From Flaviaestuariibacter sp. (GTDB lineage Bacteria; Bacteroidota; Bacteroidia; Chitinophagales; Chitinophagaceae), in NCBI GenBank assembly GCA_025963645.1, contig JAOQAI010000015.1, forward strand, positions 137,827-201,826: DNA of 64,000 nt, read 5' to 3'. Shown in pieces: positions 218 to 2,624 of this stretch. The notes beneath the pieces were generated by a model, which saw only the letters and a program-made list of their open reading frames with translations, had not been told where the DNA came from and made no database searches. The translations under genes and the position numbers were made by a program. How positions within the stretch are numbered: position 1 is the stretch's first letter; each line of letters begins with the position of its first letter.

Positions 218-871
218 TCACACCCGGTAAATACCGTTCTTGATCGCATAGATGACTATGCCGACCACGTTCTTCGACCCGGTCTTATTCATGATCCGGT
301 CACGGTATTTCTCGACGGTTCTATGTGTCAGGCTTGTCAGGTCTGCAATTTGTTTGCTTACATGCTGTTCACAGATCAGTCGTATGATATCAATCTCTTT
401 TTCCGTAAATAAGGGCTCACTCGGGTGTAAAAGCGGGCTCCGGCTTTGGGCGATCAGTTTCGAAAGGCGGATGCTGGTGTGGTTACAGAAATAATTGTAG
501 CCGTCAGCTACACTTTGAACCGCCTTCAGCAGTTCACCTTTCGAGGTGCTTTTCAGCAGGTACCCACCGGCACCGGCTTCTATCATATCGACGATCAGGT
601 GTTCCTCGTTGAACATTGTGAGCGCGATCACTTTTGTATCCGGGAAGCGGGAACGGATTATCCTCGTAGCGGTTACGCCATCCATTTGCGGCATTTGAAT
701 ATCGGTGATAACGACATCCGGTTTGCAGGAAGCTACCTTCTCCAATAACTCGGTGCCGTTATGTGCTTCCCCGACAATGTGCACCTCATCCTGCTGTTCC
801 AGCAACAAATGCAATCCTTCGAGGAAAAGGGGATAATCGTCTGCGATAACCAGTCTTAAGGGTTGCCTCAT
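218..871 (-). CDS. NarL/LuxR-family response regulator (REC + LuxR HTH)
   Basis: IADD, DVVITDIQMP, GYLLK receiver motifs; C-terminal FTEKEIDII..SKQIAD..TVEKYR HTH; start moved to ATG 871, overlapping the kinase TGA (ATGA). Confidence 0.95.
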   Translation of the reverse strand: MRQPLRLVIADDYPLFLEGLHLLLEQQDEVHIVGEAHNGTELLEKVASCKPDVVITDIQMPQMDGVTATRIIRSRFPDTKVIALTMFNEEHLIVDMIEAGAGGYLLKSTSKGELLKAVQSVADGYNYFCNHTSIRLSKLIAQSRSPLLHPSEPLFTEKEIDIIRLICEQHVSKQIADLTSLTHRTVEKYRDRIMNKTGSKNVVGIVIYAIKNGIYRV

Positions 872-1614
872 ATGTTTAGTGGAATTTGAAAAAAATACTC
901 GGTCCCGGATCCCGCCGCTGTAGTGCATTGCAGGTGACCGCCGGCGATTTCTGCACGGTTATGGAGACTTGTTAGTCCCATGCCGTTTTCCGAAGCCGGC
1001 AGGGATGCGAAGCCGTTACCATCATCTTTGCAGGAAATATAGAGCTGCTTATCGTATTCCTTCAGGTGTAGTTGTATCTGATGGGCCCCGGAGTGCTTGA
1101 CGGCATTGTGTACGGTCTCCTGTACCAAACGGTATATCAGCAGGCTTTGATCCCCGGATAAATGCTGATTCACTTCATAGCACAACCGAAAACGGATGGA
1201 TGAGATATGCCGGTATTGATCTATGAAATCTTGCAACGCTGCCTCCAAACCTTTTGTCACCAGCAACTTCGGTGTCAGGTTACGGGCTATGCCCCCTAGG
1301 CGTTCAATAACAGTCAGGATATTTGCTTCCGCTTTTTCGAGGTAATACGCCGGTGTAGCCAGCTGATCGGCTGCTTTGCTGATCTGTATACGGGTCACCG
1401 AAAGCAGCGGGCCAAGTTCATCGTGGAGGTCATTGGCAATGCGGGTTCTTTCGCTTTCCAGCAGCGCGATCTCGCTAATGAGCAGGCTTCGCTTTCGTTC
1501 AAAATGCCGCCGCTGTATCCGGATAACCGAAACGGCGAAGTAAATAATCACGGTCCCCAAAACGAGGGACGTGATCAGGACTGCATGATATATCGTGGTT
1601 TCATAGGGATCCAT
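868..1614 (-). CDS. HisKA_3 (NarX/ComP-type) histidine kinase with one N-terminal TM helix
   Basis: ERTRIANDLHDELG H-box, QETVHNAVKHS N-box, DDGNGF, GMGL, GSGT. Confidence 0.95.
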   Translation of the reverse strand: MDPYETTIYHAVLITSLVLGTVIIYFAVSVIRIQRRHFERKRSLLISEIALLESERTRIANDLHDELGPLLSVTRIQISKAADQLATPAYYLEKAEANILTVIERLGGIARNLTPKLLVTKGLEAALQDFIDQYRHISSIRFRLCYEVNQHLSGDQSLLIYRLVQETVHNAVKHSGAHQIQLHLKEYDKQLYISCKDDGNGFASLPASENGMGLTSLHNRAEIAGGHLQCTTAAGSGTEYFFQIPLNI

Positions 1615-2228
1615 AGAAATGCCAGTGCGTAAATCAGGTTCGTAAATAAATTGATATAAGAAAGAATCTCGTAAATGCCGATGCGAAAAGATTGGCTCTG
1701 CGTAAGTCCAAACAGATAAAAAGCTTCCACTAAAACACCATAAATAAAAAAGATGATAAGTCCCATGCAGATCAGGAAGCGGGAATTATGTAGCAAGCTG
1801 CGGGCTTCCCTGAAAATGAGGCGGTTGATAAGGGTAATGCTCATAAGTACGATGAGGAAGGAATAGCCAATAATAAAATACGAGTTGAACCGTAAGAGAG
1901 GATCATAGATCACCTGCTCTGCCACCCAGCCAGAAAGTATAATGGACTGCAACACGAAATAGGTCCGGGGACGCTTTGCGAAGAGATTCCACCGCTGGAA
2001 CTGCCAGTTGATCAACAGGGCTTCTGCGAGGCAGAACAGGTTATAACTTACCGTGTTGGAGTATCCTGCCTTCATGAGCCATATGCTGAGAACTTCATGA
2101 AGGAAACCCAGGGTTGCCAGGATCAGGAAGGGAAGAAAGGCCGGGCCGGTCTTTTTAAACCGGGCCCAGCCAACAATTGCTCCGATGCCGACAGACAGGC
2201 TGAAAAGGGCATTGAGGAAAAAGCTCAT
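1575..2228 (-). CDS. Multi-pass membrane protein (about 6-7 TM), probable separate sensor of the kinase
   Basis: Hydrophobic throughout; overlaps kinase start by 40 bp. Confidence 0.8.
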   Translation of the reverse strand: MSFFLNALFSLSVGIGAIVGWARFKKTGPAFLPFLILATLGFLHEVLSIWLMKAGYSNTVSYNLFCLAEALLINWQFQRWNLFAKRPRTYFVLQSIILSGWVAEQVIYDPLLRFNSYFIIGYSFLIVLMSITLINRLIFREARSLLHNSRFLICMGLIIFFIYGVLVEAFYLFGLTQSQSFRIGIYEILSYINLFTNLIYALAFLWIPMKPRYIMQS

Positions 2229-2246
2229 AGGTTTTAATAAACGGTT

Positions 2247-2624
2247 TTAGGGGTTCAGTGGAGATTCCGGTGGACAGATATCAGGACACCTGTTCCCTCT
2301 TTCGATGATCTCATCCTCGGTTTCTGTCGTCATGCTACCAGCTGCCAGGCTTGAGGCTGGGCTAATGGTAAGCATATCCTCTCCGGCTTCGTTTGTGCCC
2401 ACAATGATAGCGTGAATTTTTAGCTCTTCATCCATACCGTAATAAATTCTGAGACCCGTACAACCGTTTTTAGCCAGCAAAACATCAAAGGGCGCCCGGT
2501 CAAAACTCTCACAAAGGGGCAGGATACCGGATTGCTGGAATTCAGGTTTTAAAATGCTCTCGTAACTCGATCGGTATTGTGCGGTCATTTGTTCCGCCAA
2601 TGCAAGAGAAATAAAGTGGTTCAT
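2247..2624 (-). CDS. Small acidic hypothetical protein with C-terminal GNRCPDICP motif
   Basis: 125 aa, first gene of the operon, 18 bp from next gene, no signal peptide. Confidence 0.8.
   Translation of the reverse strand: MNHFISLALAEQMTAQYRSSYESILKPEFQQSGILPLCESFDRAPFDVLLAKNGCTGLRIYYGMDEELKIHAIIVGTNEAGEDMLTISPASSLAAGSMTTETEDEIIERGNRCPDICPPESPLNP

Follow-up and report, generated by a model that had tools for sequence, protein, structure and literature searches.

The window analysed here is a stretch of 64,000 nucleotides (nt) from contig JAOQAI010000015.1 of Flaviaestuariibacter sp., a member of the Chitinophagaceae within the Bacteroidota, and the assembly from which it comes amounts to 2.57 Mb and is 63% complete. 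Close to one end of the window lie four consecutive genes that code for a small protein with a cysteine-containing tail, a membrane protein with seven transmembrane helices (7TM), a histidine kinase and a response regulator of the NarL/LuxR type (Table 1); we refer to the four together as the cassette. A preliminary description, made from the sequence alone, had proposed a tightly coupled operon, and all four open reading frames (ORFs) are indeed present on the minus strand where it placed them. A spacer of 18 nt separates the small gene from the 7TM gene, which in turn overlaps the kinase gene by 40 nt, and the kinase stop codon and the regulator ATG at position 871 overlap as ATGA. The regulators of paralogous cassettes begin at a methionine equivalent to ATG 871, and the regulator is therefore most likely a protein of 217 amino acids (aa). 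The four genes are translationally coupled.

Table 1. Positions of the cassette genes, their surroundings and the paralogous cassettes. Plain numbers are positions in the window; entries with G000 give the genome and contig.
Feature	Position	Strand	Basis or remark
Small accessory protein gene	2247-2624	minus	ORF, 125 aa
7TM membrane protein gene	1575-2228	minus	ORF, 217 aa
Histidine kinase gene	868-1614	minus	ORF, 248 aa
NarL/LuxR-type response regulator gene	218-871 (longest ORF to 928)	minus	probable start ATG at 871
Candidate regulator-binding boxes, ACGGT-N6-ACCGT twice	2864-2909		sequence, divergent intergenic region
Divergent gene, 486 aa	2961-4421	plus	hydrophobic signal-like start, no Pfam match at E≤0.01
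Divergent gene, 1215 aa	4430-8077	plus	hydrophobic signal-like start, no Pfam match at E≤0.01
Paralog cassette	G000 C1:96043-98476		outside window
Paralog cassette, closest to window copy	G000 C10:244355-246742		outside window
Paralog cassette	G000 C10:221241-223650		outside window
Paralog cassette	G000 C21:180366-183037		outside window
Paralog cassette	G000 C21:22622-25005		outside window

The kinase and regulator are a classical HisKA_3 plus NarL/LuxR two-component pair, with the expected domains found in both partners. In Pfam searches the kinase matches HisKA_3 (PF07730) at residues 55–101 (32.3 bits against a cut-off of 24) and HATPase_c (PF02518) at residues 158–247 (41.8 bits against 26.4), and no sensor, HAMP or PAS domain; the regulator matches Response_reg (PF00072) with 98 bits and the GerE helix-turn-helix (HTH) domain (PF00196) with 32.1 bits. 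Among NCBIfam models the kinase shows a weak, sub-threshold likeness to those of MctS, UhpB, NarQ and LiaS (61.3 bits with the LiaS equivalog NF052531, for which the cut-off is 450), and the regulator matches NarL-class models, including the MctR type, below their cut-offs. The kinase N-terminus consists of a stub of about seven residues on the outside, one hydrophobic transmembrane helix and a basic stretch, after which HisKA_3 begins. Its extracytoplasmic part is too short for a ligand, and a membrane-protein gene is kept beside it, the two properties by which the functional class of accessory-protein-dependent, intramembrane-sensing kinases is recognised. These results bear out the preliminary description of a kinase with one transmembrane helix and almost no sensor domain, paired with a NarL regulator.

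Of the other two proteins, neither the small nor the 7TM protein has a Pfam or NCBIfam match even at E≤1. The 7TM family comprises 705 representatives at E≤0.001, of which the best 150 are all 151–234 aa long, and across 39 members we found no Pfam match, AgrB included, apart from scattered chance matches. Hydropathy averaged over the alignment shows six clear segments and one polar helix at residues ~59–76, and the distribution of lysine and arginine (K/R), read by the positive-inside rule, fits only a model with seven helices, the N-terminus outside and the C-terminus inside; this topology comes from hydropathy and K/R heuristics rather than from a dedicated predictor. The figure of about seven helices in the preliminary description thus agrees with the best-fitting model, although the count is deduced from the K/R bias and only six segments are clear. 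No column of the 39-sequence alignment is invariant. The close family has conserved membrane-embedded Glu, Asn and Trp residues and no conserved His, and its best-kept Cys is present in 81%; with no invariant His or Cys and no AgrB match, the earlier statement that the protein lacks catalytic motifs stands. We regard the 7TM protein as the probable signal-receiving partner of the kinase. To call the two a split sensor, as had been done, overstates the case, since no fused 7TM-kinase form was found among the best 150 of the 705 representatives or, in a search that is weak evidence, among longer proteins. The 7TM protein is also not simply joinable to the kinase, because it ends inside the cell and the kinase helix starts outside.

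The small protein has a conserved alpha/beta domain (residues 1–85), an acidic linker (86–105) and a conserved tail, in which C113-P-x-x-C117 is followed by eight residues. Its C-terminus reads as an acidic stretch followed by RCPDICPPESPLNP, in agreement with the 125-aa protein with an acidic linker and Cys tail that was first described, and this copy has no signal peptide. We found 189 close homologs and 494 by profile, every named one of which is annotated as 'hypothetical'; no Pfam family was matched across 61 members, with scattered chance matches only, and a sequence profile search of the PDB returned nothing at E≤10. Over these 61 sequences the only invariant columns are Y61, C113, P114 and C117, and the tail C-x3-C is present in 51 of the 61, most often with exactly eight residues after it. 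H3, C55 and H71 are not conserved in distant members. Among the six paralogous small proteins of this genome mean identity is 0.67 in the tail, 0.58 in the domain and 0.22 in the linker. In distant homologs the linker shrinks, such that about 12 residues separate the last strand from the CPxxC motif, and the acidic linker is therefore an insertion of the Chitinophagaceae rather than a feature of the family.

An AlphaFold2 model built on 25 close sequences reached a predicted local distance difference test (pLDDT) score of 62, and a usable model (pLDDT 83, predicted template modelling score 0.75) came from the alignment of 61 sequences. In this model residues 88–102 alone are disordered; tail residues 103–125 score 73–80 and form beta bridges at 106–107 and 111–112, and the tail is therefore predicted to pack back on the domain. 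As modelled, the small protein is a conserved folded domain and not a leader followed by a core. No fold match was found with Foldseek against the PDB (best E 0.4) or with VIA-align against 48,161 chains (best Z 2.4), a result that is not proof of a new fold. A PepSY-like or PAS-like domain, guessed from the pattern of a helix and a hairpin, has no support from either the fold or the sequence searches. A complex prediction for the 7TM and small proteins scored 0.01 and carries no weight for or against binding.

To determine how far the cassette extends, we searched a phylum sample of 401 Bacteroidota genomes with profiles of the small and 7TM proteins, obtaining 87 small-protein matches in 54 genomes and 144 7TM matches in 78 genomes. 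In 72 of the 87 cases the small gene is followed directly downstream by a 7TM match in the same orientation, and the gap between them has a median of about 35 bp. The pattern that the preliminary description named as its own refutation, small-protein homologs mostly without the 7TM and kinase genes, is thus not observed. When five of the 15 unlinked small-protein matches were inspected, all five loci were found to hold a gene of ~210–230 aa for a protein with 6–7 helices. In the opposite direction, no small-family gene was detected upstream of 68 of the 144 7TM matches; all 20 of these 'lone' loci that we inspected read X, 7TM, one-helix kinase and NarL-type regulator, where the X proteins include four weak members of the small family, several proteins with a related CP-rich tail and a few unrelated lipoproteins. 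Among 22 regions from 17 genomes the order small, 7TM, kinase occurs in 21, in most of which a NarL-type regulator follows; the flanking genes are for the most part different, and at every inspected locus the 7TM gene precedes a one-helix kinase. The exception among the 22 is G159, where an in-frame TAG interrupts the small gene (C1:1002510-1002815) of an otherwise intact cassette, which may be a pseudogene or reflect a sequencing error. Two further loci depart from the simple arrangement: at L018 (G085:C34) 1378-2867 one 7TM gene lies between a leaderless small gene before it and a small gene with a signal peptide after it, and at L034 (G189:C7) 7388-10202 three 7TM paralogs stand in tandem between a single small gene and the kinase gene.

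The genome of the window itself carries six paralogous cassettes (Table 1), all in the order small, 7TM, kinase, regulator. Genomes of the same family in the sample have 0–2 small-protein and 0–5 7TM matches each, from which we conclude that the module has expanded in this genome. With 72 of 87 small genes directly linked and six paralogs in the same order, the four genes are one conserved functional unit, as had been proposed, and the cassette is a real conserved signalling unit of the Bacteroidota, more than a chance neighbourhood. Literature searches found no paper describing such a layout, in accord with the earlier remark that no Bacteroidetes system of this kind had been described.

Two observations concern the relationship between the small and 7TM proteins. 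First, we performed partial Mantel tests on the pairwise divergence of 15 complete cassettes, using simple identity distances. Divergence of the small protein correlates with that of the 7TM protein when the regulator is controlled for (r=0.61, p=0.0005) or the kinase (r=0.68), and does not correlate with that of the kinase given the 7TM protein (r=-0.06); kinase and regulator correlate with each other given the 7TM protein (r=0.57). Divergence of the small protein thus appears to track the 7TM protein and not the kinase or regulator, which is suggestive of a specific link between the two. Second, and as an independent observation in agreement with the first, in another class of the phylum (L032, L034, L037 and L041) the small and 7TM pair precedes a kinase with one helix, a PAS domain and HisKA, and in both of these cassettes that were scanned (L032 and L041) the regulator that follows is still of the GerE type. 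Recombination has joined the input pair to kinases of more than one class, and since it occurs with two of them it behaves as a portable input module.

The small proteins are not uniform in their likely destination. In 61 small-7TM pairs, 27 small proteins begin with a signal peptide, anchor or lipobox, and several of these are clear lipoproteins, whereas 34 have no such element; the leaderless set includes the window copy and every Chitinophagaceae copy. The K/R pattern of the 7TM protein is the same with both sets (24/24 and 36/37). Both cysteines are kept in all 27 exported forms, whereas one or both are missing from seven of the 34 leaderless ones (Fisher p=0.014, although the sequences are kin and not independent), a pattern consistent with a disulfide that forms outside the cell and with a weaker constraint on the cysteines inside it. 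One interpretation of these data is that the small and 7TM proteins are a new bacterial receptor pair, in which the tail of fixed length would serve as a plug or tethered ligand; the small-protein family would have shifted between compartments, with the receptor addressed from both faces or the leaderless forms exported non-classically via the 7TM protein. We consider this distinctly unlikely; if true, the export option would amount to a protein-based, Agr-like self-signalling logic in Gram-negative Bacteroidota.

The preliminary description interpreted the cassette as a peptide-signalling system of the Agr or ComQXPA type, and here we examine the comparison. In Agr the AgrD propeptide of 40–50 aa consists of an amphipathic leader, a 7–9-aa signal and a charged tail, AgrB is a membrane peptidase with invariant His77 and Cys84, the signal is hypervariable, the kinase has 6–7 helices of its own and the regulator is of the LytTR type (PMC10482373). 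The cassette resembles Agr in that a single operon, autoregulated in Agr and probably so here, combines the genes of a two-component pair, of a membrane protein with many helices and of a small protein with a Cys near its C-terminus. It differs in that the small protein is 125 aa long with a folded domain, the 7TM protein lacks the invariant His/Cys dyad, the tail is conserved, the kinase has a single helix and its partner is a regulator of the GerE/NarL type. ComQXPA shares with the cassette a HisKA_3-class kinase, a NarL-type regulator and an upstream gene for a small protein. However, ComP carries its own multi-helix sensor and ComX is a short modified peptide, in contrast to the folded domain of 100 aa in the cassette, and no isoprenyl transferase or polyprenyl synthase of the ComQ type is present among the four cassette genes and the eight neighbouring genes scanned.

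A peptide or protein signal would imply that the 7TM protein exports or processes the small protein and that either a disulfide-closed tail or the whole domain is sensed from outside by the pair of 7TM protein and kinase. The exported forms, 27 of 61, indicate that the domain works outside the cytoplasm in many lineages, and the leaderless forms with an unchanged 7TM topology are otherwise unexplained; the kinase and regulator are of the ComP/ComA class, and one paralog adjoins an ATP-binding cassette (ABC) exporter with a C39 peptidase together with disulfide-forming enzymes. Nonetheless, no other part of the small protein is as well conserved between the six paralogs as its tail, in contrast to the hypervariable signals of Agr (PMC10482373), and if the tail were the signal, cross-talk would be expected between the six cassettes of this genome, whose tails are almost the same. 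The 100-aa folded domain with its tail predicted to be packed does not resemble a propeptide, the 7TM family offers neither invariant catalytic residues nor a match to AgrB, the linker is missing from distant homologs, and the restriction of Cys loss to leaderless forms suggests a reducing compartment. Taken together these points make a peptide or protein signal of this kind very improbable. We also considered a thiolactone ring, prompted by single-Cys tails that end four residues past the Cys and by the i/i+4 spacing of CPxxC, which equals the ring size of an autoinducing peptide; it was rejected as a working model since the 7TM protein lacks catalytic residues and several members of the small-protein family are without any Cys. 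Thus, while the four-gene unit and the small-7TM link of the preliminary description are retained, a processed and released peptide is not, and the small protein does not look like a signal precursor that releases its tail, given its folded domain and a tail that is both packed in the model and the best-conserved segment among paralogs.

An alternative role for the tail is as a thiol or metal switch, in which C-x3-C would form a disulfide or bind a thiophilic metal and the small protein would report the redox or metal state to the 7TM-kinase pair. Three of the four invariant columns in the 61 sequences fall in this motif, and its spacing resembles the copper-binding CxxxC of SCO proteins, in which a thioredoxin core is combined with a distal His that is conserved (PMC5668878). 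In five cassette regions a thioredoxin-like gene accompanies SusC/SusD, and beside one paralog lie a C39-VKOR-thioredoxin fusion and an AhpC/TSA protein. The letters CPDIC in the tail of the window copy likewise resemble the SCO motif, and the Cys-x3-Cys pair is what the small protein shares with SCO/SenC; it differs in that no thioredoxin match was found in Pfam searches of the 61 members and no SCO-like or thioredoxin fold among the listed fold matches, and in that some members are without cysteines. The seven leaderless homologs that have lost Cys keep the Pro-rich motif and the cassette, no third conserved ligand is apparent (neither H3 nor C55 persists in distant members), and it is hard to see why a single genome would need six redox or metal sensors in parallel. 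We regard a switch of this type as unlikely.

Upstream of the small gene, the intergenic region it shares with a divergent gene contains two candidate boxes for the regulator (Table 1), the second of which lies inside a 14-bp perfect palindrome (2878-2909). Pentamers ACCGT/ACGGT occur seven times in 350 bp of this region, against 0.61 expected. Three of the six cassettes, namely the window copy and paralogs own2 and own4 (the cassettes at C1:98476 and C10:223650), have one or two copies of a composite box, ACCGT-N5-CACGG-N7/8-ACCGT, in their upstream regions. The ACCGT boxes are probably regulator sites, and if so the operon would be autoregulated. A search of positions 1-3200 against Rfam gave nothing but a far-sub-threshold hairpin match, and a sigma-70 promoter scan gave one site against 4.5 expected, with a model that does not cover Bacteroidota promoters.

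Another possible reading takes the small protein as an output and not an input: it would be the first product of an autoregulated operon and an effector, as LiaI/LiaH are for LiaRS, with the 7TM protein alone acting as the sensor. The small gene is promoter-proximal and downstream of the candidate boxes, and the 68 of 144 7TM matches without a small gene upstream, including unrelated proteins such as lipoproteins in that position in the 20 loci inspected, would be compatible with this. On the other hand, small-protein divergence tracks the 7TM protein specifically, the small gene is kept immediately upstream across classes while the surroundings change, and several of the 'unrelated' upstream proteins are weak family members or have the same CP-rich tail. 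An effector role therefore has, in our estimate, very little probability.

The closest logic to that of the cassette appears, by analogy, to be that of the accessory-driven kinases of SaePQRS and LiaFSR. In SaePQRS a ternary complex is made up of the intramembrane-sensing kinase SaeS, the lipoprotein SaeP and SaeQ, a membrane protein of four helices, and the promoter of the accessory pair is autoregulated (PMC5083920). Like the cassette, it is a four-gene operon in which a small accessory protein comes first (SaeP, 146 aa) and a polytopic one next (SaeQ, 157 aa), and the extracytoplasmic part of the kinase is too short for a ligand (PMC5083920, PMC3748130); SaeP is a lipoprotein, as is part of the small-protein family, in which 27 of 61 homologs have a signal peptide, anchor or lipobox. 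There are differences, in that SaeQ has four helices and the cassette membrane protein seven; SaeS has two helices, a HAMP domain and an OmpR-type partner, whereas the cassette kinase has one helix, HisKA_3 and a NarL partner; the gene order is P-Q-R-S rather than small-7TM-kinase-regulator; and SaePQ are dispensable for activation, whereas for the cassette kinase no other input is conceivable. LiaS is regulated by the accessory membrane protein LiaF (PMC3543457), and LiaFSR and VraTSR share with the cassette an intramembrane-sensing kinase of the HisKA_3 class, a NarL regulator and an accessory membrane protein whose gene lies in the operon of the other two. LiaS differs in having two helices, and nothing in LiaFSR corresponds to the Cys-tailed small protein. 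The small and 7TM proteins matched none of the Pfam families, the LiaF type among them, and no direct comparison with a LiaF profile was made.

We therefore favour, with moderate confidence, a widespread Bacteroidota cassette in which a sensor-less kinase receives its signal via a separate 7TM protein, the small Cys-tailed protein acts as co-sensor or feedback modulator, and the output is through a NarL-type regulator. The signal would reach the input-less kinase through the separately encoded 7TM protein, which may contact the single kinase helix within the membrane. The small protein would bind the 7TM protein, in either of its two proposed capacities, and the active species would be the whole small protein and not a released peptide; the leaderless forms of the Chitinophagaceae would act from the cytoplasmic side. 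The NarL-type regulator would probably also control the promoter of its own operon. We read the cassette as an uncharacterised variant of the accessory-protein-dependent kinase theme and not as a pheromone system.

Several considerations weigh against this model of an accessory-driven kinase. That the small protein and the kinase each make physical contact with the 7TM protein is something that we infer, and the likeness to SaePQRS and LiaFSR is one of layout and logic only. The co-divergence is suggestive only, because 15 cassettes are few and related and the partial Mantel test is liberal, and the small gene may instead serve as an output. Moreover, one docking face cannot serve both exported and leaderless small proteins with an unchanged 7TM topology, and the compartment in which the small protein acts, with 27 exported and 34 leaderless forms, is left unexplained by the model.

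The surroundings of the cassettes show some recurrent features. Divergent from the window cassette are two genes with signal-like starts (Table 1), and the larger product has by eye a single YD/Rhs-like repeat at its C-terminal end. Downstream of the window regulator (L042, G000:C1:128000-141000) lie genes for an AraC-type protein of 116 aa that consists only of an HTH and for a secreted protein of 99 aa; next to these and convergent are a thioredoxin-like protein (432 aa), a SusC-like TonB-dependent transporter (1058 aa) and SusD (447 aa). An AraC-type HTH gene, one or two genes for small proteins with a signal peptide or membrane segment, and convergent thioredoxin-like, SusC and SusD genes accompany five cassettes (the window cassette, own3, own5, L026 and L029). 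The closest paralog is divergent from three genes at L043 11466-17147 (G000:C10:247465-253146). One codes for a 554-aa protein in which Peptidase_C39, VKOR and thioredoxin domains are fused, another for an AhpC/TSA-thioredoxin protein that also contains DUF4369, and the third for a C39-peptidase ABC exporter; the set has the look of an export locus for double-glycine peptides that contain disulfides. Since copies of the cassette adjoin SusC/SusD, thiol-disulfide and peptide-export genes, the signals that they receive may concern peptides or the redox state of the envelope.

Bacteroidota are major bacteria of soil, water and the gut, and their signalling is known mostly from hybrid two-component systems and from pairs of extracytoplasmic function (ECF) sigma and anti-sigma factors. 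The cassette is an abundant and repeatedly duplicated input device built from two families outside Pfam and NCBIfam. It would add a Gram-negative counterpart to the accessory-protein-dependent kinases of the Firmicutes, and knowing what the small and 7TM pair senses would explain the control of a whole class of input-less kinases.

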